DNA from: Elsinoe ampelina
Taxonomy: Eukaryota
Assembly: GCA_010093995.1 (NCBI GenBank)
Contig: ML992502.1
Coordinates: 2,172,541-2,236,540, forward strand
DNA: 64,000 nt
Direction: 5' to 3'
Shown: positions 2,646 to 32,452 of the stretch, one piece after another
How the letters are laid out: each line of letters starts with the position of its first letter
Position numbering within the stretch: the first letter of the stretch is position 1
Notes under the pieces: model-generated
The model's database searches: none
Told to the model about the DNA's origin: nothing
What the model saw: the letters and a program-made list of their open reading frames with translations, nothing else
Position numbers and translations under genes: made by a program

Positions 2646-2753
2646 AATCTAGTTTAGTATCTAGTTTAGAATCTAGTTTAGAATCTAGTTTAGAATCTAG
2701 TTTAGCATCTAGTTTAGTATCTAGTTTAGAATCTAGTTTAGAATCTAGTTTAG
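2646..2753 (+). repeat. 9 x 12-bp tandem repeat (HATCTAGTTTAG) in the copia IN-RT linker
   Basis: Directly visible; in-frame unit, de-RIP reading approx. (N/H)PVQ. Confidence 0.9.
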
Positions 2754-11398: not shown

Positions 11399-12044
11399 AC
11401 GATGCGTGGGATGTCCCTGCTAGTGGACAGGCAAGCACCAACCAAGATCACACTTACTGCCACGATGCGACCATCCACAGGCTCCTGAGGTGCAATAGCG
11501 GACGGCAAGACAACTGCGACGTCCAGTGTCGCCCGCTTGGCAGATTCACAATGCCTTTGTTCGAGCACCTCTAGACTGGCACGAAGATTGGCACAGCATC
11601 GCTTTGCTTACCGGCTGGTCGCTGAGCACTCTGACCTGGCTGCATTATCCTGCCCGCAGAGACTGCGACAGGGGTCTTGTCCCGTAGAGACAAGATAGAA
11701 AGAAATGAAGAGTGATGTATCCCTGGTTCTTTGTTCATTTACTTGTTTCCTGAGTCGTCATCATCTTGATCAAAGAACGTGGTCGACTTTCTCCTTGTCT
11801 CCTTGTCCACTTCCACTGTCTTTTCTTTGTTGTTTGACTCGGAAGTTGCGAACAGAAATGGCTTCCGTGTCTCATTGTTGGTATATCTAAGTCTGCAATC
11901 GCCCATCCACTAGAGACTCACCATCCCATCTTATTCTCACGACACCGCATCCCAACTCGTACCTACAGGCCCTGGTGGTCTGTTTGGTCTCTCTCTTTCC
12001 CGGTAAGTCACCGTCCCCGACTTGCTAACACAAATCTAGCCACC

Positions 12045-14831
12045 ATGTCGTGGAACACTTCCAACTTTCGCGTCAACGTCTTCCCTCGCCCGAGCGTGTG
12101 GCCTCCTCGTCGCAATGCCGGTCAACAGATCCCCAACTTTTATGTTCCTCCTCCCCGTCCCCGACCTCGCCGTCCGGCGCTGCACAGGACCCGTCAGCCT
12201 CTCCGATCGGCCATGAACAAGGACCCCAGCACATGCCGTGTCATCCCATTCGGCGGCAACCACCCAGATACTGTCTACGCCAATGAGTTCAGTGAGCGTC
12301 TTCCTGGTGAGGACAAGGTACGCTTCCTTGCCTCGCAGGTTGACGCTGAAGGTCCCGTTCGTCCCGGTGAAGAACCACCCCAGCGTGTATGCAAAGTCTG
12401 GCCCGGATCGCCTCACTGGCGTGGTCTGAGCCATGAGTGGCCCTTGGACGAGGAATTTCCCATCGTCAACGAAGACTGGAATGACTACTGGATCAAGAAG
12501 CCTCGCTCTGAGGAAAATCCTCATAAGGGCTATCAGATCCCTGCCATCTACGACAACGTGAAGGAGTGGAGCGACATGCCCGAGGGCTTTCATTTTCCGA
12601 AAGGCGTGTACCAACGTGACCTCCTCGGTAGAACTTTGGAGGAACCAATTGTGCCCAATGCCCACGGCATCAAGCGTAAGCGTACAGCCAATGATGTTCT
12701 GCCTCACCCGCCTCTTTCAGTGGACAACTGCTTCTGCGACTCTCACGACCTCAAGGAGTATGTAGGTCTGCCCTGCAAGAAGGCTCGTCATTTCTACGAG
12801 CTCCCTGGTCACAACTGGATCGCCAAGTACGCGTTTCCGCCAAACCCGAGCGCTACACCATATGTCCACAAGACTCCAGAGGAGATCGACATGCGCGTAC
12901 ATTTCGTGGACAAGATGCCGGAATTCGCGCCACTACCCCCGCCGATGTACATCTTCGGTCACGTCCCCGGTGCTTTCCATGACTCTGATGAGGAGATGGA
13001 CGACGAGCACAACGACAACGCTTCGGAGTCAAAAAACTCTGAAGCCCAGGCCAGCACCGGCGCCACTGAGATCCTCGGTGGGTTGACCCTGGGCGCCAGT
13101 ATTAACACCGCCATGTCTGCTCCGTTTGGTACACTCGCTTTTGCAGCTGCGAACGACAACCTCAGTGAGGCGATTGAGAAGTTACTGCAAGCTGAGTATC
13201 GCGAGTCGTATGCTAAGATCGCGAAGGAAGCTGCTGACAAGGTCAGAAACAAGAAGCCTGTGGTCGCCAGGAGTGTGGAAGATGCTGCGGCCGAGAAGAC
13301 CTCAGAGGACAAGGAGATGGACATGTTCAAGCTCTATCGTCACCACATTCGCAGGATCGAGGCTGATGCCGAGGTTGGTGCAGTCGACGACGGTGTGAAG
13401 AGCGCGCAGGTCCCGCGCCCTTTCTTGGGCTCTGAGTCTTCTGGCTCCCACAAGACCTATGTCACGTCAAAGCCCTTCCGTCACTACGTCCGCCGCCGCC
13501 CTATCCACCTCCGCGGCAAGACATACAGTCCCGTCACATCGGATATATCTGAGAAGTATGCGACTGCGTCCGAGGGAAAGACACAGGAACTACGCTACTT
13601 CCACAATTTTGACTTTGAGGATGTGCCTCTCGATCCTCTTGCAAGGGCACGGGCACAACAGACTAGCGTTTATTCTGAGGATCCGTTTCAGTCTCTGTCC
13701 CCTCCGCAATTGCCCTTTGCGCTGGCCCCTCCACAGTCGCCCTTTGCTCTGTCGCCTCCACCCTCACCATCTCCTCTCCCGCGCGGGACGCTCCGCCGCC
13801 GTTCCGACAGCTGCAAGGAAGAGCCCATCGACGAAGACGCAACGCCACCGGAGCAAGAAGCCTACGTTCGCCAGGTCGATCAGAACCGCCTCGCCCATCT
13901 CCGCCGCTCAGTCCTCCTCAGGGGTCTACCACGTATCAAGACCACATTCGGTCCCGCCCCCGAGCCGTTCGAAGCCCAAGACCAAGACGGCGCTTCCCAA
14001 GACGCACCCAAGCAGGACGCCCGCGACACCTCCAACAACACCGCCACCAACCCCGGCCGTGACCCGCAGGCCCCCCCTCCGGGTCCACGCACCCACCGCG
14101 CAACCCCTCTCCCCTCTCCCCTCCCCTCCTCCTCCACCTCCTCTTCCAGCAACTCCTCCAACCCCATCCCCTCCCCCATCACCTCCCCCACCCCCTCCCT
14201 CCGCCTCCTCCAAGACACCCTCTGGCAAACCGAGCACGACGCCCGGCACCTCGCCCTCGCCCACGCCTCCACCCAACAACGCACCGACCCCGCCCTCTTC
14301 GCCCGCACCACCCTCCTGTCCGCCCACCTCGGCCTCGAAGCCCAGCAACGCTCCATCGTCGCCCAAGCAGGGCATCACAACCTGCGCATGAGCCGCGGCG
14401 ACATCCCCTCCTTGGCGCTGGGGATGACGGTCGACGGGGGCGCGCCGGATGATTGGTACGTCACGCAGGGGGGGTTGAGGTTGGAGGAGCACTACGCGAG
14501 GGAGGCGAGGAGGGGGAAGGTGGAGCGGTTGAGGGAGGAGAGGGAGAGGGGAGTGAGGGAGATGGTGAGGGGGGGCAGGGGGTGGGTGGGGGTTACGCGG
14601 GGGCCGATGGTTCTCCGGGAGGGGGCGAGGGTGAATCGGTTGTATAATCGTGGCGAGGATAGGGAGGTTCAGGTGGAGCTAGGGGGAGGACGGGAGCAGG
14701 TGCAGAGAGATGATGACCCCCCTGAGGATGTCATGATTGAGACGGGGAGTTTCAGCGATGATGGAGAGGTAGGGATGAGGATGTTGAGGCTGCAGGATCA
14801 TGATGCTGATGCTGATGATGAGGCGGAGTAG
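12045..14831 (+). CDS. Hypothetical 928-aa protein, Pro/Ser-rich, family not recognised
   Basis: Long uninterrupted ORF with GCCACCATG context; candidate 5'-UTR intron at 12003-12039. Confidence 0.75.
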   Translation: MSWNTSNFRVNVFPRPSVWPPRRNAGQQIPNFYVPPPRPRPRRPALHRTRQPLRSAMNKDPSTCRVIPFGGNHPDTVYANEFSERLPGEDKVRFLASQVDAEGPVRPGEEPPQRVCKVWPGSPHWRGLSHEWPLDEEFPIVNEDWNDYWIKKPRSEENPHKGYQIPAIYDNVKEWSDMPEGFHFPKGVYQRDLLGRTLEEPIVPNAHGIKRKRTANDVLPHPPLSVDNCFCDSHDLKEYVGLPCKKARHFYELPGHNWIAKYAFPPNPSATPYVHKTPEEIDMRVHFVDKMPEFAPLPPPMYIFGHVPGAFHDSDEEMDDEHNDNASESKNSEAQASTGATEILGGLTLGASINTAMSAPFGTLAFAAANDNLSEAIEKLLQAEYRESYAKIAKEAADKVRNKKPVVARSVEDAAAEKTSEDKEMDMFKLYRHHIRRIEADAEVGAVDDGVKSAQVPRPFLGSESSGSHKTYVTSKPFRHYVRRRPIHLRGKTYSPVTSDISEKYATASEGKTQELRYFHNFDFEDVPLDPLARARAQQTSVYSEDPFQSLSPPQLPFALAPPQSPFALSPPPSPSPLPRGTLRRRSDSCKEEPIDEDATPPEQEAYVRQVDQNRLAHLRRSVLLRGLPRIKTTFGPAPEPFEAQDQDGASQDAPKQDARDTSNNTATNPGRDPQAPPPGPRTHRATPLPSPLPSSSTSSSSNSSNPIPSPITSPTPSLRLLQDTLWQTEHDARHLALAHASTQQRTDPALFARTTLLSAHLGLEAQQRSIVAQAGHHNLRMSRGDIPSLALGMTVDGGAPDDWYVTQGGLRLEEHYAREARRGKVERLREERERGVREMVRGGRGWVGVTRGPMVLREGARVNRLYNRGEDREVQVELGGGREQVQRDDDPPEDVMIETGSFSDDGEVGMRMLRLQDHDADADDEAE

Positions 14832-15296: not shown

Positions 15297-18200
15297 TCAA
15301 GTGACGTGCTTGGGCTTCAGGATGCCGAGCTCTTTCAACCTCTCCCAGGCCTGGTCCCTCTTCATTATCACCGCCCTGTCCATGTGAACACCGTCCAGAA
15401 CCTTCAAACCATGGCAACTGCTTGCAATGAGAATCTCATGCACTCGTTTCCGGATTCTGGTATCTCCATCCATGAGCTTCCTGTGCGCAGAGTCCTTATC
15501 ATCGGCGATGTCAGGCAACACATAGCGCGCCTCCTTTGCCCGCTGAACCTCTGTCATGCAGATGGATTGACCTTGCTTCGGTTGCGGTAGAGCAACAGCC
15601 TTGACGATTTGCATCTCCTGATCGGCAGTCCCAAGAGCCGGATAGAAGCCGAGGTTGATGGGATTATCCCGCACATCGACGTTCACTAGTGTAGGAAGGT
15701 GAGCTAGTGTTTCAACGCATTTTCGGAGTCTTCCGAGCCGATTGCCTGCCAAGTGTACATATTGCAGTGGCTGAATATTGAGTAGTGGCCGAATGTCCTT
15801 GAGCGCATTGAAGTTGAGGTTGAGGTAGGACAAATTCGGGAAGTGTAGACCAAAGTCTTTCGGCAGACCAAGTAAACCACATGAAGCAAGTTCCAAGTGG
15901 GCTACAGTGTTTTGCGTGGCATGCACTTCCAGCTCGCTTGGAAGCCCATTTCCGGAGAGATGTACCGAGCGAGCGTGAATCGCAGTGGAGAAGACTGTTC
16001 GCCACAAGGATTCGTCGCCATTGCCTTGTCTACGCAGGGAGATCGTATCAATGCTTTTGAGCGCATGTAGACCGGGTAGGGAGGAGATTGCGTTGTCATC
16101 CAGATCAAGGTAACGCAGAGATGGCAAGAGTGTGAGGTCCAGAGTGCTTAGCTCGTTGCTACCGGCGGATAAGTAACGAAGAGTTGACGGCGTAGAGACG
16201 TCTGCTGTGAGGCATAATTGGGACAACTTGTTGTCACCGATACTGAGCCTCTTCAAGGCGGTCAAACGCTCGATTCTGGAGCATTGTCGAAGTCTGTTTG
16301 AGCTCAGATCAAGCGTCTCCAGCTGGTCCCTATTCATAGTTAGCATCGAGCGATCTCGAGTGTGTGAGTCGACTTACCAATGACAAGGACCAAAGTCGAC
16401 AGTCTCGATTTCATTATTGGAAACGTCCAGCTTCAGAAGACCTTCAACATCCATCAAACCGTCCAGTGAAGTGATCTGGTTATGGCTTGCCTTCAGTTCT
16501 CGTAGATGGATCAAGCATCCAAGACCATCTAGATCAGTGATCCCATTGTGCGAAATGTCGAGGTACTGTAGGTGTATCAAGCGATTCCACGCGGTCAGGC
16601 TAGAAAGCGCATTGTGGCTAGCATTGAGCCATCGGATAGCCAGGGGAGCACCATCCAGCTGAGACACTGCGTTTCCAGAGATGTCAAGCTGTTGCAGGCG
16701 AGTACAGAACTCTTCGAGACCATGAAGGGTATCAAGTCCTTGCTTGCTGAGGCTGAGCTGCTTGATATCCTCCCAGAATGGCTCATCCCCTTTGACGTCA
16801 GTGAGAGTCTTGACCAATTGCTGCACAGCAAGGGCATAACGATCCCCTTCTATTTCAAGACCGTGGCGAGCCACAGTTCCTGACAAAACCTGTTCCGTTG
16901 GTCCAGGCTGCTGATCAATTTCTGCTACCGTGAAATCTGGCAAATCGCTCAGGATCATGGAAGGTGAGCCATGTTGTGGTAGACTGAGCTGTTGGTCGTG
17001 GGTCTCGATCGGCCGGGAGACTGCGAAAGAAACACTGACGAGGCGCTTGTCAGGTAGCTCAGCAACCATCGACAACTCGCTTTGGTCAACATCGGGCCCG
17101 AACCGTCGTTGGCGGAATGTTTGAGCGTGGAAGGACACTTTCCTGTTGAGACCTTGTGGTTCTTGTCGTGGAGGGAGCTCTTCAACGTCTGATTCGTGCT
17201 CCCACTTTGAAGCAGTCTCATTGCTGAAGGCCCGCAGATCGGCCGGAACGTGCGCATAACGCCTCGGTGAAGGAGTGCTTTCCAATTCGAAAGGTTCGGA
17301 AATCTCGGACTGCTCGTATAGTGGCTCGTTGTGTTGCTGCTTCGGGCCATGCTCGGTACTCCAAGATGTCGCTCTCGTCTCAACCTGATGTTGACTAGAA
17401 TCCAGCATCGATCGACCCTTCATGATACTAGATTTGAGAGCACTATGCTGCTGGTCATTTCCAGTATGCGGCCTTGCGAAGGTAGTGTCATCCTGTGAGC
17501 TGAAGCGAGCATGACCTCGGTCCGGGTTCGTCTTCGCTGTCGCCTGCTTCGACGATTGACTGGACTTGACTTGTTCCATCTCGTGTAGCTCATCCACTGT
17601 CAGATCGGGAATGTTTCCGAAAGGATCATCATCGCTTGTCAAGTTGCTGTGCGCGTAATGACTCAGCTTCTCCAAGCTTCGCTGTTGCTTCGGCTGCTTC
17701 TCCTTGACCCATCTGTTCAGAGTTCTGTCGAATGTCATCCCAGCGACTTGCTCTGGAATGAGATGTGCAACTGCATCTGGCGCCAGTGTAGCAACATTGT
17801 CAGACTTTCGGCTGGAAGCCGAGTGTTGAGTGCGTCCTGTGGAGAAACCAGCCGACTGATCTGATCCACCGGTTGGCATATCATCGACATCCTCCTCTCT
17901 TTGAAGTGGTCCAGTAATTCTGATCTCGGCCCTTGAGCCATCCTGAAGCTCAAAATACTCTTCCTCCTCCTCCATTAGACCGCGAAGTTTGAGCGATTGG
18001 ATTGTCGTCTCTATGATATCGATATCATCTTTCTCCTGGAACTTGCGTAGTTGGCTAGCCACTCGAGAGTCTTGCTGAGGGAGGAACCTTGGGCGCCAAC
18101 CTGGAGCCGTCCCTTCGCGCGAAGGCGGTCTCGATACTCTGAGCACTGACGATCCTCGTTCGATCGTGGCGTCAGGCTCGTCATCTTGCTCAACGGCACT

Positions 18201-20536
18201 GTGCTCATTATCCTCTTCCACGCTACCCAGACCACTCGTGGGTCGCCCTCTGGCCCGGATGAGCGACATGATATGCATCGCTTCATCGAGGAAATCCTGC
18301 GTTGTTATCGATCGTTTCCTCTCCCCAGCGTCGCTGTTCCTGGCAACATTCAGAGTGAATGTAGCAAGATCATTGGCGACTGCTTTGGTCTGGCTCACAA
18401 GCTTCATCGACCCCGGTAGACTAGACTCGGCGATTTTCTCCCTGATGGCTTGCATTTGTGGAGAACTTGTCAAAGGCTCGACCTCTTCCTCGTCTGCTTC
18501 TGACCATCTCTGCTGATTTGGTGTTGGATTTCGTGGGCGGGGCTGTGTCACGACATGTAAGCTGGCATCCGGACTGTCGCCATAGATCTCGATGGACGGT
18601 ATAGGATTCTCTTCCAGTCGGGACTGATCCTGATTTTGATGGTTCAACTGAAGCCCTTCCATTTCGAGATCCAAGGCATGCAAAGTCCTTTGACGTTTGG
18701 GCGTGGGAGCTTTGACGGGGGAGTCTCGCAAGCGCTTACCCTCATCATTGGCTGAATTTCTTCGAGTGGTGCCATTCATGCCCGTTGGTGCTTGAGACCG
18801 TCCCGATTTCGCTGTGCTGCGATCTGACAGTTTCCGTTTGACACCAAACGTCTCCTGGGTCGCCTCGCTTTCCTCTAAATGAAACATGAAAGGAGATCTG
18901 GCGCCTGGGGGAAGTGCATCAGGTTCGGGAGAACCTTCGGAGGTTACTTCTGGAGAACCTTCGGGTGATTGCTCTCGTGCCTCCTGAGACCCAACACTGG
19001 GAAAAGAGATGTTGGCCTCGAAGTCATACTCGTCCAGTTCGTGCTCGCCGAAGTTGCTCAATTTTGAGCGTGCATTCGACTCAGCTTCTCCAGGTATTCG
19101 CAGCGATGCATTCGATAGGTCCTGTGAAGACTTGTGCTGATGTTTCGCAGATCGTATTGACTGGGTCTGAGCTGCCTCACCCGTACCTTCGAGTTGACTG
19201 AGCCTACGCAGGAGCTTTCCATTGGTGAACGTATCATATGCTCCAAACAGCTTCAGCGGACTCTTAGTCGACTTTGGAGTCGGCAGATCTGGCACTGTGG
19301 AGACAGCGTCGCGCTTCGGTGTTTGAGGTTCTGCGTAGCTGTTCTCTTCTCCTGGCATTGCCTCAGACGCAAAGTCCCTTGACTCAATTGTTTGCATCAC
19401 CATAGACGGCTGTTGGTTGGTTGAGGCGGAAGGACTCAGTGGTCTCGTCTTGAATGAGCCATAGTTCGATAGACCACCGCGCTTAGTGTTTACGAAGCTC
19501 CCTAGCCTTGTCATGGGGGGTGTATTCTCGATAACGTTGTCTGGGACGAGCGAGCTTTCGATCAATGGGATGCTTTCTTCTAGGTTGTCGTTTGAATGTT
19601 CCTCCTGATAGATTGCGGTGATTGGATTGCTTGGCACTTCTGTTCGTGAAGTCGCCACACTACTATTGTGGAAGGCTTGGATAGACTCTGCATCCGCTGG
19701 CTTGTAGATAACCTGACCATCCATGATGTGCTTTCCCATGATAACAGGACTGAATGTCTCGTCTCCAGCATCGGTCTGACCGCTGATCTTTCGGTCGACA
19801 GCGGTAATTCTGTCGCTGCGGAAGGAGATGTCGTTCATGTTGGCATTTTCCAGAGTTTGGTGTTCGAGGTCCTCGGCTGGTATTGGGGTTCCTTCTCTTT
19901 GCTGGTCATCTTCCGCCATCAACTCCTCGCTGGGGTCAGAAAGAGACGGAAAGCTGAAGCTGCTATCTTGCTTTTTGAACATGGATGGCGGTAATGAAGG
20001 TGGACTTGATGGCGGTGCTTGGCAGCGCTGCAGTCTGCTTGGTGTCTTTGTTGCGGAGCTAGGAGGTTTGGTTGGAGAGAAGATGTTTTCCAGCGCAGAA
20101 GGTCCGAACAAATCTGTTTGGTCCCCATATCCAAGATCACCATCAACCAATCTCTTTCTCCATGTCAAAGGGGCGCCGTTCTTGTTTGGTGAAGATTGTC
20201 TTTCGACAGTATCGTATCGAACAACCGAATCCACAGAATTTACTGTGCCTGTCTTGTCGCAGTCTCGAAACGTCACTGATGCAGTGCGAGCATTCTGAGC
20301 GTTGTCGCCGAGCTGAGAAAGCCCTTTGCGGACAGAATTGGCTGAGGTGTTGTCGTTCTGTGTACGTGGTTTCGAGCTCGCGACGGAGGAGATGCTACCA
20401 CTCCTCCGTGGGATCTTGCACGCGCTGGACAGTGTCAGTCTGACCACCTGTCAGAGCTTACCGATACATACACTGCTTGTTGTGGAATCCATTCGTCTGG
20501 GAGGTCGGCCAACCATGGCTGACTAGCTCCTGGCAT
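15297..20536 (-). CDS. NUD1: SIN/MEN spindle-pole-body scaffold Nud1/Cdc11/SepK-like LRR protein; introns 20425-20471 and 16330-16377
   Basis: N-terminal MPGASQPWLADLPDEW, DLFGPSALENIF and RKRSITTQDFLDEAMHIM motifs, long disordered middle, C-terminal LRR array. Both introns canonical and frame-preserving. Confidence 0.85.
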
Positions 20537-21008
20537 CTTGCTCGAGGGGAATGTTTGTTGCAAGAGTTGGGCGCGTCGATCGCGGGGCTTAGAAGAATCG
20601 GATCCAGTGAAGCATCATATTTGCTTGATACTATCCGACTTGTGTGACGGAAAATAAATGTTGAGCGGCTCTTCGCTGGCAGCTTGAACGGTCGGCTTCT
20701 CAAGATCTTTCACATGCGGTAGTCTGGTTAGAGGTTAGCTGCAGTTGGACGCGGGAGTGTTTTCACCCGCGGGTGTTGCACCGAGAGATGCCCGATGAGG
20801 CTTAGCTTCAGTCCCACATTTGCCGACTTCATGCCACGACGACAGGCGGCAACCTTGATAACCGGACTAGCATTACAAATTTCAATATCCCTGGTAGTCA
20901 TCTTGTCGACTCCTTCAATCCTGGATCACTGGTCTCGACGGTTGTGCGGGCGTCGCTGTCTCGGCATAGCAAATGTTCAACAATATGTGAGATTTTCACA
21001 AAAGTGGC

Positions 21009-23915
21009 GTGAATTCGACCATGAAGAAACATAGATGGCTTTGGCCGGCATCGCATTCGCTCTTCCTACAAAACGGATTGTACACAGATGTCGATCTGAA
21101 TGGTGCTAGGGCATATAGCGATGACTTGCTGGTTCCTGGCTCTGACGACGAGCTTGACAAGGAACAACGCCAGACCAAGCGAAAACGAATCAATAGCCTG
21201 GCCAACAACTTTTTAGCCGGTCAAGGACTCATCATACCCTCTGCTTCTCTACGGGGACCTTTTGGTGAAACAAATGATGACAATTACCCTCCCAGCGAGG
21301 TGGGCATACTTCCCGAGCCTGAGGAGCTGGACACGCTGAATGATGCTATGCGGTGTGCTGAGCCAACGGAGCCAGCAGTGGTACCTGCGGACATCATCAC
21401 TAGCACAATGCATGACCACTCTTATCGAGAGAGCGCTTCAGCTCGAAAGCGGAGGTTCCGTGGCGTGGAGATGGTTCCTCCAGGAATGCAAACTCCTTCA
21501 CGAACCCCTTCATCTTCGCCGCCATCTGCGATCGAGGATCTTCTGGCGGCTATCGACGAGGGTGGTGAGGATGCCGTTGGAGAGAGAGAACCATCTGAGG
21601 CATCTCCGAGCATGCTGGATGGAATCATGAATGCCAAGATGCTCAGCTTTTCTGCAATCGATGCCGCTGATGTTGCGGCCGGGATTGACGAGGCAAAGCG
21701 CCTCAGTCAGGCTGCAATCGAGCTGCCTCACAGTTCACATACCCTCAGCACTCAATCACAAGACGTACACACCGGAACTCCCGCCGATCCCCACCACGCG
21801 CACAAATCACGCAGCAGGCCTGCGCCGAATAAGGGAGCCCCGAATGCATCGTCGCCATTCATGTTCCGGTACAAGAAAGGTCGGAAGAGTCGCAATCGTA
21901 CTGCAACACCACCGGCTTCTGATCCCGCAGTGGCTCTACAAACAAACAAACCATCTCCGGCTCAAGCACGCGACATCTTTGACGTGCCAGTCGACGATGA
22001 CCAGGATTTTGTCGAGCGGCACACCAACAAGCGGCTCAGGAGTTCCGGTCGAAGCGATTCAGGGCGAAGTCATTTGAAAGGCAAATTGCGGAAGTTGATG
22101 CGCAACTCAGGCGCTACTTTTGAGTATGACGCCGCAGCACCACCCACACCGAGTCGACGTCCATCCGCTGTTCAGGCCATGGAGGAGCCAAGCAAGCCCA
22201 TCGTGCACAATGATGAGATATCGCAAGCTGAGAAACCAGGGCTAGCTGGCTCGATCAAGAATGATCGTCAAGAAACTGCAAGCAGTCCAATGGAGCCGGC
22301 AATGCAAATCTCGACCCAAGCAGCTCTTCGGGAAGCACATCGCGATCTGCTGAAGTCATCCCCGGTTGCAAGCCTTCTCTCACCCACCAAAGTGGAGCGA
22401 CGGCCTGCATCAGCGGATGCATCGCAGTCACCTCCTCCAGCAGTGACACCTTTTGCCAAATTTCACCGGCGGTTCGCAGTCAACGAGCATGATACACACG
22501 AGCCAGCAATCAGCACGCAGGCAATCTTCGATGCATTTTCGCCATTCCAGATATCTCCTGTAAAGCAGTCAGCCAAGCAGAACCAAGTCCGATCGCCACT
22601 ACAGCCATCACCCGTCATCAACGTGTCGAGCTTCACACCCATCAATAAGCCGGACAAAAAGTCGCAGGAGCATCTGAAAGAAGACCAACCGGAGCAACTG
22701 GAGCAGCAGAGTGTCGCCGTGATGGGTCAGGACCTCAGCACAGCCCCCGCCATCGATGCGGGCTGGTCTTTCGCTGCTTTGGATGCCTCTCCTCAGGCTG
22801 AGAAGCCCGAGGAAGAGCCCAGAGGCGTGCGTCCAGTCATGCAGCCGCGTCCCAACAAAGGCTTGAAGTCGATGGGATTCAAGGTCACCAAGGCATCATC
22901 ACAGTCGCAGTCTCAGGACTCAACCCGATCGAACAAATCTCGAACAAAGCGAAAGCCTGAGTTCGTAGAACAAGAGTCTAACGCGGGAGGAGTCGTTCCG
23001 ACAACTGCGTCAAGTGACCACGGAAATGACCCTGACATTGGTACGGCACCAAATGAAGTGTATCCCAAGGTCGTATCGCAAGTTGGGAGCTCTGTCAAGG
23101 TCACACAGCCACCGCCCACGACGGAGCTTTCGTCTACCAATCCCATATCGACCGGTCCCAGTCTGTCTCAGTCCAAGATAACGAAGAGGCGTCGTCGCAA
23201 ATCACTTCCTGCCAATGGTACGCAAATAAAAGCGTCTCAATTGCCTCCATCTATGTCACAGCCGAGTCGATCCAGGCCCGCCATCAACAAGAGCGACATT
23301 AATCGTTCCTTCACACCGTCCCGTCCGCAGTCTTTCGCGCTCTCCGACATTATCGCGGACTTCTCCTCGTCTCATCCCTATGTCGACTTCCGCAACGTCC
23401 TTTCTCAGACATCGATAAACTCGCTCAATTCTGGTCGGCACTCACTTCCCGCTCAAAAGCGTGGCTCGGTTATGGACTGGGATGCGGAAAGCGAAGCAGG
23501 TGATAATGTCCCTTCGCAAGCAGATGCTCCCGCAGATCAGCCGGAACCTAGCAATGTCAGCCGTGTCGTCGACCCGATGGCTGTCACCGATCATCCACCT
23601 CCGCTAGCATCGACGGGCAGCTTCACCAAGCCATCTCTCCCTGCATCAAGAGTCCGATTAAGTTTCGATTCCCAATCGCCTCGCAAGACTGGCTTGAGTG
23701 CAGTCGCGGAGGAGAGCTCCGCCACCATCCGTAGCAGCAGGAAGGGCGGTCTGAAGAGCTCGCTGAAGAAGGCAAGTAGGGAGAGCTTTCAGGATGCTCA
23801 GAAGGAGACGACGATGGACATGGACACGGACTTTGATATCGACGCGAGCTTGAACGACCTGAAGAATGACGTGCTGGGAGGATGGGATGTGGAAGAGGAG
23901 GCGAGAGCGCTATGA
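21009..23915 (+). CDS. Hypothetical ~968-aa intrinsically disordered protein (true start uncertain: ATG 21021 or a small upstream exon from 20973)
   Basis: Long ORF; short conserved-looking motifs (SASLRGPF, ISTQAAL, STQAIFDAFSPF, LGGWDVE). Confidence 0.8.
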   Translation: MNSTMKKHRWLWPASHSLFLQNGLYTDVDLNGARAYSDDLLVPGSDDELDKEQRQTKRKRINSLANNFLAGQGLIIPSASLRGPFGETNDDNYPPSEVGILPEPEELDTLNDAMRCAEPTEPAVVPADIITSTMHDHSYRESASARKRRFRGVEMVPPGMQTPSRTPSSSPPSAIEDLLAAIDEGGEDAVGEREPSEASPSMLDGIMNAKMLSFSAIDAADVAAGIDEAKRLSQAAIELPHSSHTLSTQSQDVHTGTPADPHHAHKSRSRPAPNKGAPNASSPFMFRYKKGRKSRNRTATPPASDPAVALQTNKPSPAQARDIFDVPVDDDQDFVERHTNKRLRSSGRSDSGRSHLKGKLRKLMRNSGATFEYDAAAPPTPSRRPSAVQAMEEPSKPIVHNDEISQAEKPGLAGSIKNDRQETASSPMEPAMQISTQAALREAHRDLLKSSPVASLLSPTKVERRPASADASQSPPPAVTPFAKFHRRFAVNEHDTHEPAISTQAIFDAFSPFQISPVKQSAKQNQVRSPLQPSPVINVSSFTPINKPDKKSQEHLKEDQPEQLEQQSVAVMGQDLSTAPAIDAGWSFAALDASPQAEKPEEEPRGVRPVMQPRPNKGLKSMGFKVTKASSQSQSQDSTRSNKSRTKRKPEFVEQESNAGGVVPTTASSDHGNDPDIGTAPNEVYPKVVSQVGSSVKVTQPPPTTELSSTNPISTGPSLSQSKITKRRRRKSLPANGTQIKASQLPPSMSQPSRSRPAINKSDINRSFTPSRPQSFALSDIIADFSSSHPYVDFRNVLSQTSINSLNSGRHSLPAQKRGSVMDWDAESEAGDNVPSQADAPADQPEPSNVSRVVDPMAVTDHPPPLASTGSFTKPSLPASRVRLSFDSQSPRKTGLSAVAEESSATIRSSRKGGLKSSLKKASRESFQDAQKETTMDMDTDFDIDASLNDLKNDVLGGWDVEEEARAL

Positions 23916-26409: not shown

Positions 26410-28203
26410 AAGGTGTGGTGCCTGGATGCGATGTGCAGCGCGCTATTGAAACCTGAAGTGGATTCGAGCATCTTGGACGATGGAAGCAAGTGTAGACGGA
26501 GCGGCTGGCCTTGGTGGAGTGTGGACAGATTGTCAAAGGATCTGGCAGGGTTAATACGTTGATGAACGGCACCGGCATGTGTACCGAGACAGATGTCTAG
26601 GCGGTAATATGTTTGGTGGCGTCCCCGAAAGATGGTAAAAAGCGTGCTAAAGCATGCTTGCTTGTTTCTTGGATCGACCACAACCAGCACCTTGGAAAGT
26701 CCAGGCGATATTAGGCGAATGTGCATGCCATCTCCTCGGAGGACCCGAGGCTGCACGTGGGGGCGACTGCTTGGTAGTGAACCAGTACTCTGCGCTTTCT
26801 GAAGAGTTACTTTGCTCAACTGCGCTTCCACTTGTGCGAGATATGGATCTACTGCTGCGGCACTTTACATACAGTCGTCGCTTCAGCCAAGTCGGCACGT
26901 AGCTGCAGCCCTTGTTGGACCGTGACAAGCTGATGACTGGTACTCCCGACCAGGCAAACTATGTGGTACAAAGGCTGCATGCGGTGCTAGCCAATCTGTC
27001 CATTCTTGACGGGAAGAAAGATCACCCTCTTTCTAGATCAGCCGCAATATGTGAGTACCAACTACACGGGTGCAGGGATCTCAACAAAAAGGTACCCACA
27101 AAGGCTAAATAGGCGCATTAGCTGGAGAAATAGATGAACGTCATGCCCGCCAAGGGCAATAGTTCATGTTCACGAGCCCAAAGAGTCGGGTGGCGTCAAG
27201 CTCTAGGAAATCACAAGGCGGGGTCACTCATCTTCTTCGACTCTTCCACCTCCGATCTCATCGTCCTCTGGACAACTCTTGAGCCGCATCTCAATCTCGC
27301 TTTTCTCGGCTGATGTATCTCATCTAACCTGCATGACTTCTTTTGGACGTTGTAAGACATCTTGTTCTGTTGGTATATGCAGTCCACGTAGCGAACGTAC
27401 TACCTTATTTCACTTAGTCTGTCGTGGCACCAACGGAGAAATTCCTCGACCTATCATTCTGCCCTGGCATGTCGCTGGTCCCGACTGGTAGTTCGCTCGA
27501 TATTGCTCGATTTCCAAAGGGCCCGTGTTAGACTCCAAATCCGTTCTTGACCACTTCTGATCCAGAGTGCTGGATCTCGATGCGGCTCTTGCCTGTTCAA
27601 GTGATGTCGCTATACCGGCATCATCCGTCGAGTAAGGAGAACATCCTGATTTTCACTCATGCGATGCTGATCATGCACAGTGTTCTCCTGGTGACGAGAA
27701 CGAAGGCTCGTGTCCGCCCGAACCAGGCCGACGCCATGTACAGCGGTGAATCTCGTCCGGGTCAAATCATCGTGAGATGCTCTCGCTCAGTCACGACATC
27801 ATACCGTACAAGCGACGCTACTATCGGCCTGCATTCGGTAGCTTCGAGCTTCAATATCGACCTGCAGCCGCGCATTGCGGCCGTCTCCTCCTGCCAGCAT
27901 TGCAAGTTATCGTCCATGGTGGGCGATTCTGTTCGACGCCAGAGCTAAGAGCTACCCGCAGATAGTCACCCTCCATGAACAGTACTCATGTCGAGCCATG
28001 AGTTTGGATCGGACGGACGAGAACAGTGATGACTGGTCCCGGCTGAACTATGCCTCCCTCTTGTTGGACCAAGGTAAGATGTAGGTATAAGTACTGACCT
28101 GACATCTCTCCTCGAACCAAGAGTACGCTGGCATCTCTCGTTGAAGCCTGCTGTCCGTATTTTTGCTCCTTCTCTTGCCAACCACCCTTGTTCCTCCTTC
28201 ATC

Positions 28204-30711
28204 ATGCATCTCACCAACATCATCTTGGCCTTGATGGCCACATCGGCCTTGGCCCGTCACGTCCCTCGCCGGGCCAATGCTGTGGCTTATGCTCAGTACG
28301 ACGGCTACCCGGAGTCGAGCAAGGAGCCAGAATACCCCACCACGACAAAGAAGGAGGACGAATATCCATCTACGACAAAGAAGGACGAATATCCGTCGAC
28401 GACTAATAAAGATGAATATCCTTCGACTACTAGGTGAGTGATCGCACAGATCGGCCCTCATTTGGCAGACTTTTTATCTCAAGTCGGTGCACACACTCTG
28501 ACAGCAGTGATAGCAAGTCTAAGGAGCCCGAGCCCACTACAGGGCCGCCAAAGGAAAGCACAACGTTCGTGGATCGATGTCTGGCTGGACGGAAAACATG
28601 AGGACTGACGCTTGGCCGCAGCAAGTCTGAACCGCCAAAGGAGACAACCTCGTATACTTAGACGTGCCCAAACACAGTGAACAGCCTTGCTAATGCTCCT
28701 GCAGCAAATCTGAACCCCCTAAAGAGTCTACAACGTATGTATTCATGCTCACTTTACGCCTTGACACCTCGCTCTCAAAACTGCCTGAAGCACTGTGGTT
28801 ACCTGTTCAGCTCGACTGTTGACATTATAGATTACTACACAGGCTAACAGTCCGACAGGAAGAAAGAAGAGACGACGTGTGTCCCTCATCGTGTACTCAA
28901 TTCCATCCGCTAACTCGCGAAGCACTAAGAAGCCTGAATCCACGTCAGTAGTTGTGGCTCGTTGTAAGCCTTGAAGATCACTAACCAGGCCACAGAACAA
29001 AGAAAGAGGAAGAATCGACCAAGCCACCTCCTCCTTCGACAACTCCTGAGAAATCTTCCAGCACGTATGGCTACTTGGATATTGTGGCACCACAGGTCAC
29101 TCACGATCTTGCAGAACAAAGAAGGAAGAGCCAAGCACAAAGCCGCCGCCCCCATCTACAACTCCTGATAAAACAACATCCACGTAAGTTAGCGCATCCT
29201 TTGCATGGTCATTACTGACAATCTCTCAGCACCAAAGAGACCACGAGGCCTCCTCCAGAAACCACAAAGCCCGCAACCAGTACGAGCAGCGACAAGCAGA
29301 GTACCACGAGCGCCACGTCCAAGATAGAGACCTCGAGCACGTAAGTCACGCCATCTCATTTTGAATCAACCCAGGATTTGGGTATGTGACTATATATGCC
29401 TTGCATGCTTGGATCCCAGGTCAGGAACTCGAATCGTTGTAGCCCTTGGCTCAACTCATTTGCTGCCCTCTCCGAAGTCTTTGCTCCTTCAATGCGCATG
29501 ATCAAAGTTGTGTCGAGGATCACTGATTATTCTTTAGCGTAAAGCCTCCGGTCACAACCTCCAAATCCAAAGAAGAGAGGTAAGTAGAACTTTTATTTCT
29601 TCAATACTGCATGGTCATGATCATACCTAGATCATTGCATGATATCTCAGGCAAGGTTGCGGTATTGGCCGATTCTAATCTGACACCATTCACCATTCCC
29701 TCAGCGCTGCTGTCCAAGTTTGCACGCTAATCATGACTAGTACACCGGCACCTACTACCACAGAGGTAAAAACTACTACAAGGTCCGTGGCAAACTATGG
29801 TTTCCGATCCGAATATACATTTCTGATACATGATGCAGCGACAAGGTCACGACAACGACTAAAAAGATTGAGAGTACAACCAGGTGAGTGTTCGATATCT
29901 GTCCTGCTGGCTGGTAATCTTCTCTCGGACCTTGCTCAGGAGTAGCATGTTCCAATGGGATCATGCCTCAACCTCTTTCACAGAACTATGCTTGGTTTCC
30001 TCCCGCATGATATCAATTCATTACACGAGGAGATCTGGCCCTATCTCTTGTAGAATTGGACTACCTTGCTGACTCAAACCTTAGTGAAAAACCAACGAGC
30101 AAGGTCACGACTACTACGTGAGTCACATCTTCTTCCCTTCATCAGTCAAGCGTGTTCCTGCCCGGTTTATCGCACACATATCTTCCTTAAGCGGGTCTTT
30201 CGTCAGGCATGGTCCCCTCTCTGAGGTCCTTTACGGAATGCTTTCGTGTCGTGGATATAGGCGATAGTTCCCCCAGCGCTGATAGATCGACAGCAAGAAA
30301 GAATCCACACCAGCTCCTACGAAAACCCCCAAGGTCACCACCACACCAGTGAAGACTACAACCCGCCCTCCAATCACCGTCACCCGATCAGTTTCGACCG
30401 AACCCGACAAATCCTCCTCTACCAAAACTTCCGAGAGCAAATCCGAGAGCAAGACGACTCCTGTGAAAACCACAGAGAGCAAAACGAAGAGCGAATCAAA
30501 AACGGTCCCCACCCCAAGCACTACCCCCAAGGTCACCACCTCCCCGTCTCCTAAGCCAACTACCACAGACGAGAAGCCAAAGACAACCTGCAAGACCCTC
30601 ACGGAGACAAAGGTCGAGTACACCAGCACCGTCACGACGGTCACTTACCCGACATATGTGACCAAGACACACGTGGCGACCGTCTGTCTCCCGACGTACT
30701 ACAAGATGTGA
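28204..30711 (+). CDS. Secreted Thr/Lys/Pro/Glu/Ser-rich mucin-like protein (~402 aa), 14 exons
   Basis: Signal peptide MHLTNIILALMATSALA. Exons 28204-28433, 28514-28564, 28622-28651, 28705-28734, 28859-28876, 28923-28943, 28996-29064, 29115-29183, 29230-29340, 29538-29579, 29741-29782, 29839-29883, 30085-30117, 30294-30711; total 1209 nt, open frame, GT-AG introns with CTRAY-like branch sites. Confidence 0.85.
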
Positions 30712-31078
30712 GGTGCCGGATCAGTGTTCCGCTTGACAAGCGGTCGAGGGGGTTGAGAAGGATTGAGCAGGTGGGACATGGTTGGGGGCGGAGGGAGGGT
30801 GGGTGACGGTACTACCAGTGGCAGGGGGGGGTTTCTTTTGCGTGTTGAGAGGTCATGGTGCATGGGATACGGTCTTTGATAGAGTTACGCCTGTGCGAAG
30901 CAGGGGAGAGTGTATTCACGGCTGATACTTTTGTAGCGATTGATGTGATGGGATGTGGTAACAAGGGATATTCAGTTCGAGCATCTGGTGTATTTCCCTT
31001 GATAGTGGCAATGTGGCGTGATGTAAAGACTTTTATGATTGATCTCCTATCTACAATTATTCTCCTAGGCTGAGTCGA

Positions 31079-32146
31079 TCACCACCCCACAGCGGCCTTG
31101 ATCGCTTGTGCCAATACCGGCGCCTCGGCAGCATGCGTCGCCGCATTTGGGTGGTAATCGCAACCAACATCACTCCCCTGCGATGGCCAGTCCACAAAGT
31201 ACGCCTTCGTTCCATTAAGCTTCGAGATGGCATCCTTGAGTGCGTTGACCTGTGTCGTATGCTGAGCGTCTTCGACACTCGGGTACCCGTCGCTCAACAT
31301 CGGCGAGCTGAGCAAGAAGAACGACGCCTTCTTATACTTTGCCGAGATCGTGCCGATGAAGTCCACGAATGCCTGAGTGTAAGTGGGGATGTCAAGGCGT
31401 TCGCGCACGTTGAGGTAGCCGAAGTCGTTGGTGCCGAGGTTGATGACGACCGCGGATGGGTTCCAGGAGGATGGGAAGGGGTAGTTGCCTGTGGCGTCGT
31501 TGGCGCCGTAGCGCGTCCAGAGCTCGGGCATGAGGGGCGACGTGTCGACTTGGCCTGAGCCATAGTTGCGGACGATGCCCTTCCCTGACCAGGCGATGAC
31601 GTGGTAGTCTGCCTTGAGGGAGGTGGCGGCGAGTGCGGCGTATGTGCGCGGGTTGTCGGTGACGGCTGCGTCGTTGACGCAGGGGAGAACGCCGTCCAGA
31701 CCGTAGCCTACGGTGATCGAGTCGCCGATGAATTCGATCTGACGTTTCTCGGCTGTAGTGGCGGAGGTGGGACCGTCGGCGGTGATGTCGCCTATGCTGA
31801 CGGTTCCAAGGGCTGTCTCTGAGCGGCGACGCAGGGTGACGGTATGCTCACCCTTGAGGAGTTGGGGTGTGGAGATGGACGTGGTGTTGACCTTGCGGAT
31901 GATGGTGGGGGCAGCATTGTCGACGAGCAGCTCGAAGCTGTTATCTCCGTTGATGGCGGTCAGACCGATGGTCGCCTTGGTGCCCTTGAACTTGAACTGT
32001 ACGCCGGTGCCAGGCCATGTGAGCTCCCTTGTCGCTGGGTTTACGCGGCCCAACCACCTGAACTTCTGAGCACGTTCATCAGTCTCGACAGGAACAGAGA
32101 GAGCGCTGGTGAAGAGCAGTGACGCCAGCAGAGATTGATAGAGCAT
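31079..32146 (-). CDS. Secreted SGNH/GDSL esterase, carbohydrate esterase family 2-like
   Basis: Signal peptide; N-terminal WPGTG beta domain; IEFIGDSITVGYG, AWSGKG, INLGTND, CDYHPN. Confidence 0.9.
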   Translation of the reverse strand: MLYQSLLASLLFTSALSVPVETDERAQKFRWLGRVNPATRELTWPGTGVQFKFKGTKATIGLTAINGDNSFELLVDNAAPTIIRKVNTTSISTPQLLKGEHTVTLRRRSETALGTVSIGDITADGPTSATTAEKRQIEFIGDSITVGYGLDGVLPCVNDAAVTDNPRTYAALAATSLKADYHVIAWSGKGIVRNYGSGQVDTSPLMPELWTRYGANDATGNYPFPSSWNPSAVVINLGTNDFGYLNVRERLDIPTYTQAFVDFIGTISAKYKKASFFLLSSPMLSDGYPSVEDAQHTTQVNALKDAISKLNGTKAYFVDWPSQGSDVGCDYHPNAATHAAEAPVLAQAIKAAVGW

Positions 32147-32452
32147 CTTGAAACAGCCGGTCGATTGGTAGATCAGGGAAAAGACTCAAGCATTTCCCAT
32201 CAAGGCTTCTTCTGGCCTACCTTTATACTTGTCTGCATGTGGCGGATCACGGTGCCGGTAGTCACGTAGCGTGTGAAACCTTCCATCCCCGCACCATGAC
32301 TTCCGCGCCGAATGGACGAACGGAAAGTCTTTATACATTTACCATAGTGGACGTGGGTGAAGGAAATTGAAGGTCCAGTTTTGCGGACCGCGAGATCGTC
32401 GTTTCTCCGTGCCCAAAGAGGAAGCCACGACAAGCTTTCGGCCCGGGGACTG

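Follow-up and report, generated by a model that had tools for sequence, protein, structure and literature searches.

A transcribed but unannotated gene of Elsinoe ampelina with twelve small same-phase internal exons, probably grown by duplication of an exon-plus-intron unit

Fungal Ser/Thr-rich secreted and wall proteins have a signal peptide, a disordered stalk rich in Ser, Thr and Pro and intragenic tandem repeats, and to our knowledge such wall-protein repeats are coded within single exons. Expansion of repeats that contain an intron is described for the Cryptococcus gene CNN00420 (PMC2395259), and same-gene intron duplications are reported from fungi, with the exon flanks duplicated in half of the cases, together with introner-like elements, the length of which is roughly double that of ordinary introns (PMC3609843); for Dothideomycetes, parallel intron gains within 15-bp windows are reported (PMC4457414). 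According to PMC6616335 and PMC4324775, splice sites of filamentous ascomycetes pair across introns, and in two species 93.4% and 91.56% of the alternative events were intron retentions; for Aspergillus niger, a 15-nt exon that can be skipped is recorded (PMC6616335). Functional microexons were undescribed in filamentous fungi before a paper of 2024, as its abstract states (PMC11121469). The micro-exon genes (MEGs) of schistosomes carry most of their coding sequence in very small exons, the majority of 15 bp, between introns of 0.1-5 kb; they are described as restricted to flatworms, and isoform pools were demonstrated (PMC4350168, bioRxiv 10.1101/2023.06.21.545858). Our literature search found no account of a comparable mini-exon gene in fungi and no paper joining Elsinoe, AT-rich regions and introns, and a review on Elsinoe ampelina (PMC8295512) gave no match when searched for mucilage and adhesion terms.

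The gene described here lies in a 64-kb window of E. ampelina DNA, which is the whole stretch that was analysed. The locus is a genuine nuclear gene that this filamentous ascomycete transcribes but for which an annotation is absent; it lies between genes for a CE2 esterase and for XAP5. The model rebuilt from the sequence places it on the + strand at 28204-30711 with 14 exons and 13 introns; all 13 introns are of the GT..AG type, and the spliced coding sequence of 1209 nt, free of internal stop codons, encodes a product of 402 aa. Transcript data were contigs of four public runs (X1-X4), presumably of RNA. The features are as follows; exons are those of the rebuilt model and introns are called by splice signals only, unless a contig or a comparison is named.

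28086-28091 (+): TATAAG motif, candidate core promoter, 113-118 nt 5' of the ATG
28120-28203 (+): pyrimidine tract (70%), 3' of the TATAAG motif
28204-28433 (+): exon 1, 230 nt, with ATG, predicted signal peptide and Tyr repeats
28204-28254 (+): predicted signal peptide, 17 aa, ends Ala-Leu-Ala (hydrophobic core, -3/-1 rule)
28434-28513 (+): intron 1, 80 nt, GTGAGT..TAG, CTGAC branch motif 12 nt before its end
28514-28564 (+): exon 2, 51 nt
28565-28621 (+): intron 2, 57 nt, GTTCGT..CAG, CTGAC
28622-28651 (+): exon 3, 30 nt, KSEPPKETT unit
28652-28704 (+): intron 3, 53 nt, GTATAC..CAG, CTAAT, poorest donor
28705-28734 (+): exon 4, 30 nt, forms a duplicate pair with exon 3 (exon comparison)
28735-28858 (+): intron 4, 124 nt, GTATGT..CAG, CTAAC
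28859-28876 (+): exon 5, 18 nt
28877-28922 (+): intron 5, 46 nt, GTGTGT..AAG, CTAAC
28923-28943 (+): exon 6, 21 nt
28944-28995 (+): intron 6, 52 nt, GTCAGT..CAG, CTAAC
28996-29064 (+): exon 7, 69 nt
29065-29114 (+): intron 7, 50 nt, GTATGG..CAG, CTCAC
29115-29183 (+): exon 8, 69 nt, forms a duplicate pair with exon 7 (exon comparison)
29184-29229 (+): intron 8, 46 nt, GTAAGT..CAG, CTGAC, last 23 nt within the X1 contig
29230-29340 (+): exon 9, 111 nt (X1 contig)
29341-29537 (+): intron 9, 197 nt, joint 29340/29538 in the X1 contig
29538-29579 (+): exon 10, 42 nt (X1 contig)
29580-29740 (+): intron 10, 161 nt, joint 29579/29741 in the X1 contig, GT..AG with the cut moved by +2
29741-29782 (+): exon 11, 42 nt (X1 contig)
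29783-29838 (+): intron 11, 56 nt, donor GTCCGT, joint 29782/29839 in the X1 contig
29839-29883 (+): exon 12, 45 nt (X1 contig)
29884-30084 (+): intron 12, 201 nt, joint 29883/30085 in the X1 contig
30085-30117 (+): exon 13, 33 nt, more weakly similar to exon 12 (X1 contig)
30118-30293 (+): intron 13, 176 nt, joint 30117/30294 in the X1 contig
30294-30711 (+): exon 14, 418 nt including the stop, about 95 aa of intron-less spacer, then the C-terminal module (X1 contig)
30580-30696 (+): C-terminal module, predicted beta-hairpin (single-sequence fold)
30712-30786 (+): 3' untranslated stretch (contig coverage)

Each of the 12 internal exons has a length divisible by 3 (range 18-111 nt, median 42 nt), and the lengths listed in an initial annotation of this DNA (51, 30, 30, 18, 21, 69, 69, 111, 42, 42, 45 and 33 nt) were reproduced exactly; together they hold 561 of the 1209 coding nucleotides (46%), five of the 12 having 36 nt or less. 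The statement that each intron interrupts a Thr or Ser codon behind its second base was likewise found true for 13/13 introns, which are in phase 2 throughout and cut 8 Thr and 5 Ser codons. Unit borders of the same Thr/Ser-then-Lys kind, free of introns, are present within exon 1 and exon 14. The introns measure 46-201 nt, and five of them (124-201 nt) are 2-4 times as long as the other eight. With 13 introns per 1.2 kb of coding sequence (10.8 per kb), in a neighbourhood whose frames are open for 1.1-4.1 kb and mostly lack introns, the architecture is extreme for a filamentous ascomycete, and the mini-exon layout is rare in moulds. Retention of any single intron leads to a stop or a frameshift.

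The exon-intron pattern exceeds chance. A blind scan for CT[AGC]A[CT] located 9-13 nt before an AG selected 14 of the 175 + strand AGs in the gene, 13 of which are the modelled acceptors, all 13 modelled introns having the branch motif at this distance; the same combination occurred at 4/172 AGs of the minus strand and at 91/3649 (2.5%) of the GC-island background. Expressed as density, the gene contains 13 intron-like signals per 2.5 kb, and island windows outside this gene contain no more than 4 (median 1). The T content amounts to 12.6% in exons versus 29.7% in introns, and in the 5' part to 10.4% in exons 2-8 versus 26.8% in introns 1-8. When 30 shuffled sequences were searched for spliced ORFs, none exceeded 3 introns or 516 nt, and the minus strand yielded 1 intron and 342 nt, versus the 1209 nt modelled. 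Five donors deviate from GT[AG][AT]GT and two from GTNNGT; the donor hexamers quoted before were correct when checked against the rebuilt introns. Ahead of the 13 donors, the exons end in AC (8), AG (4) or TC (1). The donor of intron 3 is poor, yet an in-frame TAG follows 9 nt downstream, so that read-through is excluded. An alternative chain with intron 2-6 donors at 28579, 28664, 28818, 28881 and 28948 keeps the frame open too, so frame logic alone leaves the donors unfixed; the chain was rejected because of its five non-consensus donors (GTCTGG, GTGCCC, GTTGAC, GTCCCT, GTAGTT), and further because 4/5 replacement introns have only 41-43 nt and the resulting peptide is uncharacteristic. We also rejected a further, 14th intron at 30532-30612, where the X1 contig is unbroken, and an upstream extension via the small frame 27998-28084, which, judged by eye, joins out of frame. 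Rfam gave no match over 27800-31100.

The X1 contig, 789 nt long, joins the exons across introns 9-13 exactly as modelled, without extra letters, and runs through to 30786, being continuous across 30294-30786. The junctions proposed earlier are, hence, used in transcripts at 5/13 joints (introns 9-13, one contig), and the other eight rest on sequence signals. All of exons 9-14 are included in this contig and none is skipped, contigs being able to drop rare variants; the non-consensus donor GTCCGT of intron 11 is used. The first 23 nt of the contig are the end of intron 8, which means that some molecules, at least, are unspliced at this intron. Contigs of X2 and X3 cover 30526-30766, the 3' end only, and stop at 30765/30766. 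X4 had no contig on the locus, and none of X1-X4 had one on 28000-29206, which is uninformative either way.

The N-terminus resembles a signal peptide in that its core is hydrophobic (mean KD 1.55) and it fits the -3/-1 rule for signal peptide cleavage, in line with the secreted product that the initial annotation had proposed. Its mucin-like composition is supported as well: Ser and Thr make up 41.8% of the mature chain (Thr 28.1%, Ser 13.8%) and Pro 13.8%, and the two features by which mucin-like proteins are judged, a signal peptide (here predicted) and a long low-complexity region rich in Pro, Thr and Ser, are both present. The 402-aa product has a pI of 9.37 and no N-glycosylation sequon. 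Exon 1 contains about 3 tandem copies of 27-30 nt with the motif EYP(S/T)TT(K/N)K, holding 7 of the 12 Tyr; TRF detected intra-exon repeats only at the locus. Tyr is confined to residues 29-72 and 373-400, and Cys363 and Cys395 are the only two cysteines, whereas the spacer is rich in Thr, Ser, Pro, Lys and Glu and lacks Tyr, Cys or any aromatic residue. A single-sequence prediction showed exon 14 to be disordered except for strands at 96-110 and 120-134 of the exon, that is, residues 360-374 and 384-398 of the protein, which form a hairpin predicted with modest confidence (strands pLDDT 61-75, mean pLDDT 59.3, pTM 0.24). Both Cys and 5 Tyr are located in the C-terminal module, and the strand limits suggest that Cys363 pairs with Cys395. 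A GPI-type hydrophobic tail is absent, the last 20 residues having a mean hydropathy of 0.05 and ending in Tyr-Tyr-Lys-Met. The product appears to be an intrinsically disordered, basic, mucin-like protein that is predicted to be secreted and glycosylated.

Homology searches were run with the two terminal exons, 1 and 14, as queries. Against longer proteins, zero of 2318 candidates were scored for exon 14 and zero of 925 for exon 1, and among 1.84 billion representatives the sole match of exon 14 (E 8.9e-4) was an unrelated bacterial repeat protein of 1647 aa. Pfam returned 0 families, the PDB sequences 0 matches and the ESM Atlas no usable match; 594 and 442 pattern matches in JGI metagenome contigs were obtained, none of which was confirmed. 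The protein collections lack the product but contain the protein of the adjacent gene, as an entry of 100% identity that NCBI labels Elsinoe ampelina; by a positive control, a match at E 1.9e-64 was to be expected if the collections contained the product. Since no relative was found, there is no outside support for conservation or function.

Similar exons of the array are adjacent in every case, with z scores of 10.5 for exons 7/8, 7.3 for exons 3/4 and 5.1 for exons 12/13. Exons 7 and 8 share 19/23 residues and 48/69 nt, their codons differing by 11 synonymous and 4 non-synonymous changes; exons 3 and 4 share 8/10 residues and 22/30 nt. Six predicted intron pairs compared after trimming of the splice signals gave p values of 0.48, 0.81, 0.036, 0.82, 0.096 and 0.60, none of them significant after correction for six tests, and blastn searches of introns against introns and of introns and exons against the 64-kb window gave chance matches only (best blastn-short matches 11-14 nt, E at least 0.023). 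Because introns beside duplicated exons are unlike each other, the duplication of whole units is deduced solely from exons, phase and context. The earlier idea of growth by exon-plus-intron duplication thus stands for the exon duplicates 3/4 and 7/8 but found no counterpart in the six intron pairs. Instead, an intron-less repeat array could have existed first and acquired its introns afterwards, in parallel and each time at the same spot, as introner-like elements, by another site-preferring gain or by conversion of repeats to introns. Such gains would explain why introns sit solely at Thr/Ser-then-Lys unit borders while exons 1 and 14 hold such borders without introns; the five long introns recall introner-like elements in their length (PMC3609843), and gains of this kind within 15-bp windows are reported for Dothideomycetes (PMC4457414). 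They are difficult to reconcile with introns that resemble neither each other nor anything else in the window and of which 0/13 exceed dinucleotide-shuffled sequences in folding stability (z -0.39 to +2.16), and the adjacency of similar exons is what tandem duplication predicts. Intron insertion sites typically have the context AG|GT, but AC is found at 8/13 exon ends. We regard parallel gain as a doubtful explanation, albeit the most serious one besides tandem duplication.

The array could also act as a cassette system like schistosome MEGs, in which skipped exon subsets give length variants of a host-facing coat protein. Free in-frame skipping, as claimed before, is borne out by the arithmetic: 4096/4096 subsets of internal exons are in frame and stop-free, with products of 215-402 aa. 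The donors off consensus, the 18 and 21 nt of exons 5 and 6, and a predicted signal peptide in a plant pathogen would all suit such a system, and given the 15-nt exon skipped in A. niger (PMC6616335), exons of 18 and 21 nt may be skipped here. However, no skipping joint was seen, the sole spliced contig, in which rare variants can be dropped, includes exons 10-13 and uses even the GTCCGT donor, and the splice-generated length variation that had been envisaged is therefore unsupported. In Pezizomycotina, moreover, splice sites pair across introns and retention dominates the alternative events; under intron definition a weak donor yields retention, which here means truncation or a frame shift, and the spacer exons are near-interchangeable, so that variants would mainly differ by length. 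Since the fungus splices by intron definition, diversification of the schistosome style is arithmetically possible yet unlikely, and we give equally little credence to infection or stress causing exon subsets to be skipped and graded lengths of coat protein to be secreted. More improbable still is that the locus is no working protein gene, either because the transcript is decaying or non-coding or because only exon 9 onward is real and the 5' exons arose by chance. This would fit the start of the X1 contig inside intron 8 and the lack of a homologue, a Pfam family and an entry in the protein collections, but in the blind scan the acceptors of introns 1-8 stand out no less cleanly than the acceptors of introns 9-13, whose joints are proven, exons 2-8 are depleted of T relative to introns 1-8, the changes between exons 7 and 8 are mostly synonymous, and the frame extends from an ATG with signal peptide to the stop over more than twice the length reached by shuffles.

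In sum, we favour, with a probability of roughly 60%, a mucin-like gene that is spliced constitutively and has grown through old duplications of an exon-plus-intron unit. Its protein would consist of four parts, a cleavable signal peptide, a Tyr-bearing head of the EYPSTT type, a long spacer, half of which is coded by the 12 small symmetric exons, and a tail of about 40 aa. In the secretory pathway the spacer would acquire dense O-mannosylation, and the tail would be a beta-hairpin stapled by the sole two cysteines; the Tyr-rich ends are likely attachment or cross-linking modules, the reach of which would be set by the spacer. Each short intron would be recognised singly by intron definition through its donor, a CTRAY branch site and the AG acceptor that follows 9-13 nt later, and all 13 introns would be removed constitutively, as we infer for introns 1-8. 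The joints would have inherited both their common phase 2 and their Thr/Ser-then-Lys context, the array having presumably grown by repeated tandem duplication of one such unit. These duplications would be old, so that synonymous sites and introns were randomised and the peptides kept under selection. The same-phase layout would allow the number of units to change in evolution with the frame intact, and would be a by-product of origin rather than a splicing device.

The locus is a transcribed gene with a predicted secreted product in a crop pathogen and is missing from public protein collections; since it is unannotated, genes of this class escape secretome and effector lists that derive from such annotations. 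It offers natural tests of whether intron-defined splicing can skip exons of 18-30 nt and of how introns multiply along with coding repeats. If the unlikely cassette system were true, it would be the first MEG-like diversity system outside flatworms.

Compared with known systems, the product shares with fungal Ser/Thr-rich secreted or wall proteins the signal peptide (predicted here), the disordered Ser/Thr/Pro stalk and intra-exon tandem repeats (exon 1), but its array is split over exons and it has neither a GPI-type tail nor a Pfam domain. The parallel to schistosome MEGs drawn in the initial annotation holds for the layout, as both have a signal peptide (predicted here), small symmetric exons between conventional first and last exons and internal exons that can each be dropped in frame; it does not extend to the concentration of most coding sequence in tiny exons, nor to long introns, the fungal gene having a median exon of 42 nt, introns of 46-201 nt and no sequence relation to MEGs. 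Isoform pools are shown for MEGs, whereas the fungal gene has one spliced contig, of exons 9-14, with none skipped. Tropoelastin resembles the array in having a single phase at all exon borders, so that modules of a repetitive matrix protein can be removed like cassettes, but its phase is 1:1 versus 2:2 here, and it is an animal gene without homology, spliced by exon definition and with extensive alternative splicing documented (PMC12554196). Introner-like elements are long, unusually stable and present as many near-identical copies in unrelated genes; here, 5/13 introns have 124-201 nt, 0/13 are unusually stable and none recurs within the 64-kb window. Introns of the CNN00420 type and of other same-gene duplications are identical or near-identical, unlike those of the array, the units of which are, in addition, heterogeneous (18-111 nt); copy number of the CNN00420 type varies between strains. 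In both, the two exon flanks are duplicated, as in exons 3/4, 7/8 and 12/13, and the repeat unit spans exon ends plus a whole intron, as we propose for the array of E. ampelina.

The gene was rebuilt by script at window positions 28204-30711 on the plus strand with 14 exons and 13 GT..AG introns, an ATG at 28204 and a TGA ending at 30711, and its spliced frame of 1209 nt encodes 402 amino acids. The internal exons of this mini-exon gene measure, in order, 51, 30, 30, 18, 21, 69, 69, 111, 42, 42, 45 and 33 nt, all of them multiples of 3, and all 13 introns lie after the second base of a codon, for Thr in 8 cases and for Ser in 5. Exons 7 and 8 agree at 19 of 23 residues, yet at only 48 of 69 nt; of their codon differences, 11 are synonymous and 4 non-synonymous. 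For exons 3 and 4, identity extends to 8 of 10 residues (22 of 30 nt), and the likeness between exons 12 and 13 is weaker (z 5.1). All 4096 subsets of internal exons are in frame and free of stops; retention of any of the 13 introns leads to a stop or a frameshift. Six-frame ORF lists contain mere fragments of the gene: one of 119 aa near exon 1 and one of 141 aa from exon 14. The factual statements of the initial annotation, that is exon sizes, the single intron phase with its split Thr/Ser codons, the duplicate pairs 3/4 and 7/8, the in-frame skipping of any subset and the fragmented ORF track, all check out.

Four public sequencing runs, none of them recorded as RNA, were aligned to window positions 28000-30900, and three (X1, X2 and X3) gave contigs there. 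Run X1 yielded one 789-nt contig with zero differing letters, which covers 29207-29340 and continues over five joints to 30786:

29340 to 29538, plus strand, joint at intron 9
29579 to 29741, plus strand, joint at intron 10
29782 to 29839, plus strand, joint at intron 11
29883 to 30085, plus strand, joint at intron 12
30117 to 30294, plus strand, joint at intron 13

All five predicted joints covered by the contig were correct and, therefore, X1 contains spliced RNA of the mini-exon gene. Intron 11 was removed despite its donor GTCCGT, which had been called weak. The contig starts 23 nt inside intron 8 (29207-29229) with all five downstream introns removed, as would be seen if intron 8 were retained, if the RNA were a partly spliced precursor or if transcription began internally. 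Contigs from X2 and X3 span 30526-30766.

The mini-exon pattern exceeds chance by four controls: branch-site scan, signal density, composition and spliced-ORF search. A blind acceptor scan for CT[AGC]A[CT] 9-13 nt upstream of each AG dinucleotide was positive at 14 of 175 AGs on the plus strand of the gene, and 13 of these are the exact predicted exon starts, the 14th lying within exon 14; the minus strand gave 4/172 and the background of the island, the GC-rich gene block which holds the gene, 91/3649. Intron-like signals amounted to 13 in the 2.5 kb of the gene versus a median of 1 (maximum 4) in island windows outside the gene. The T content was 12.6% in exons versus 29.7% in introns, and 10.4% versus 26.8% in the 5' part, whose joints are predicted. 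A spliced-ORF search which used GT, branch motif and AG and nothing else found 13-14 introns at the gene; the minus strand yielded one intron in a frame of 342 nt, and 30 shuffles reached no more than three introns and 516 nt. Frame logic by itself leaves the donors of introns 2-6 unfixed, and an alternative chain is also open; this chain depends on five donors off the consensus, its five replacement introns include four of only 41-43 nt and its peptide is out of character. The original model was kept.

How did such an array arise? Like exons adjoin (3/4, 7/8 and 12/13), all introns have one phase, the exon ends before the donor read AC in 8 of 13 cases and a Lys codon mostly comes first after the split codon. 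These features are as serial tandem duplication of one exon-plus-intron unit would predict, and the array may have grown in this way. In Cryptococcus, repeats of ~107 nt in CNN00420 are reported to take in exon ends and a whole intron, so that expansion adds introns (PMC2395259), and for 24 fungi 82 same-gene intron duplications are reported, half of them with duplicated exon flanks (PMC3609843). With splice signals trimmed, no likeness was found between introns in six predicted pairs (p 0.036-0.82), nor between the introns and the rest of the 64-kb window. Since 11 of the 19 conserved codons of exons 7/8 differ synonymously, neutral introns are expected to be randomised and, therefore, their lack of likeness is uninformative and not contrary to duplication; it does speak against a recent origin of the array. 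The rival explanation, that introns entered an already existing repeat array in parallel, has a precedent in gains by introner-like elements reported for Dothideomycetes (PMC4457414), but the stable folding typical of such elements was seen in 0/13 introns and no intron copies were found within the window. Most likely, the gene structure is a fossil of exon-intron unit duplication.

The N-terminal 17 residues of the protein are hydrophobic (mean hydropathy 1.55), end with Ala-Leu-Ala and are read as a predicted signal peptide by the -3/-1 rule. The mature chain has 28.1% Thr, 15.3% Lys, 13.8% Pro, 13.8% Ser and 10.4% Glu and a pI of 9.37, and neither an N-glycosylation sequon nor a hydrophobic C-terminus was found in it; its Thr/Ser/Pro content bears out the mucin-like composition proposed in the initial annotation, and the predicted signal peptide fits a secreted protein. 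Seven of the 12 Tyr are located in exon 1, in EYPSTT-type tandem repeats also detected by TRF, and five in the last 30 residues; exons 2-13 encode 187 residues without Tyr, Cys or any aromatic residue. The exon 1 repeats (28321-28427; period 27-30 nt, 2.2-2.9 copies, 80-84% matches) are younger and intron-less, and their unit borders have the same Thr-Thr/Lys context as the intron-bearing borders further downstream. AlphaFold2 predicted exon 14 alone to be disordered except for two long strands at peptide residues 96-110 and 120-134 (pLDDT 61-75). The only two Cys of the protein (99 and 131 of the exon-14 peptide, 363 and 395 of the protein) would lie opposite each other in this low-confidence single-sequence model if the strands pair end to end. 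We read the protein as an extended, probably glycosylated spacer with a Tyr-rich module at either end and, from its composition alone, as a putative matrix, coat or adhesion protein.

Pfam, PDB, the ESM Atlas and JGI metagenome contigs gave no relative to queries with the two terminal exons, which would miss relatives having the spacer alone in common. The sole match of exon 14 among 1.84 billion representatives was an unrelated bacterial protein (E 8.9e-4), and neither exon 14 nor exon 1 matched longer proteins. In a local control, with program and library size kept equal, the exon-14 query retrieved the spliced protein at E 1.9e-64; hence the blank result is not an artefact of low-complexity filtering. 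The gene appears to have been missed by public annotation, since the NCBI protein of its neighbour is in the searched collection. Literature searches, judged by title or start of abstract, found no micro-exon gene described in fungi, and a search on Thr-rich fungal genes with symmetric or duplicated exons found no published description.

The island (~4.5-32 kb, 52-57% GC) has AT-rich blocks on both sides (27-36% GC), an alternation which is the pattern of a filamentous-fungus genome with mutated repeats. The AT-rich blocks cover 1-4500 and 32300-64000, with the 27-kb island between them, and the mini-exon gene and an esterase gene come last in the island, next to the right-hand block. Other features of the island are:

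10043-11398, plus strand, Smg4/UPF3 plus RRM domain ORF, nonsense-mediated-decay factor (domain search)
11838-14831, plus strand, uninterrupted ORF of 997 aa, no Pfam family at E 0.001 or better
15297-20450, minus strand, pair of adjacent frames (358 and 1358 aa), leucine-rich repeats (LRR) at their junction
20991-23915, plus strand, uninterrupted ORF of 974 aa, no Pfam family at E 0.001 or better
31079-32185, minus strand, carbohydrate-esterase-2 (CE2)/GDSL protein gene, convergent neighbour of the mini-exon gene

The 358- and 1358-aa frames are probably parts of a single large LRR protein gene, divided by an intron or frame change. The CE2/GDSL protein matches an NCBI protein under the label Elsinoe ampelina at 100% identity (next match 83%, the rest at most 66%); the window is therefore taken to come from this species or one very close to it. 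Between the two converging genes lies an intergenic stretch at 30712-31078; contigs end at 30765-30786 on the mucin side and a separate X1 contig begins at 30848 on the esterase side, placing the 3' ends ~60-300 nt apart. The Smg4/UPF3 ORF is 17 kb away from the mini-exon gene, whose intron-retained forms all would have premature stops. Upstream of the mucin ORF, a small frame (plus strand; 28 codons from the ATG at 27998) is followed by a GTAAGA, CTGAC, AG arrangement that overlaps a TATAAG motif, frame and arrangement together spanning 27998-28121; as an N-terminal extension the frame was rejected, as splicing would join it out of frame.

Splice-made length variation, as proposed in the initial annotation, is arithmetically possible, but no observation bears it out. 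Splice sites of filamentous ascomycetes are reported to pair across short introns (PMC6616335), and the share of intron retention among alternative events is reported as 93.4% for Trichoderma longibrachiatum and 91.56% for Aspergillus oryzae (PMC4324775). Under such pairing, weak donors would lead to retention, which here would mean a stop or frameshift for any intron. A 15-nt exon is reported to be skipped in an Aspergillus niger transcript (PMC6616335) and, therefore, low-level skipping of the 18-30-nt exons is possible; a functional cassette system is improbable.

In sum, the observation is confirmed and its interpretation partly supported: a protein of an ordinary kind, read as a secreted mucin-like spacer, has a gene structure extraordinary for a mould. 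This structure is of moderate relevance to annotation and to the evolution of introns, and it could serve for testing whether exons are skipped under intron definition. The proposed parallel to schistosome micro-exon genes (MEGs) holds for the layout, with a predicted secreted product and small symmetric exons between conventional end exons, but two features that define MEGs are absent: just 46% of the CDS lies in small exons, and the gene is fungal and without sequence relation to any MEG family. The introns are also short. As to a third such feature, a pool of isoforms, the one spliced contig joins exons 9-14 with none skipped, though a contig would not show rare variants. The gene would work like a MEG in potential only. 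With tropoelastin it has in common the single-phase rule, which allows cassette removal. In proposed mechanism of origin, its nearest match is the Cryptococcus repeat-expansion gene CNN00420.
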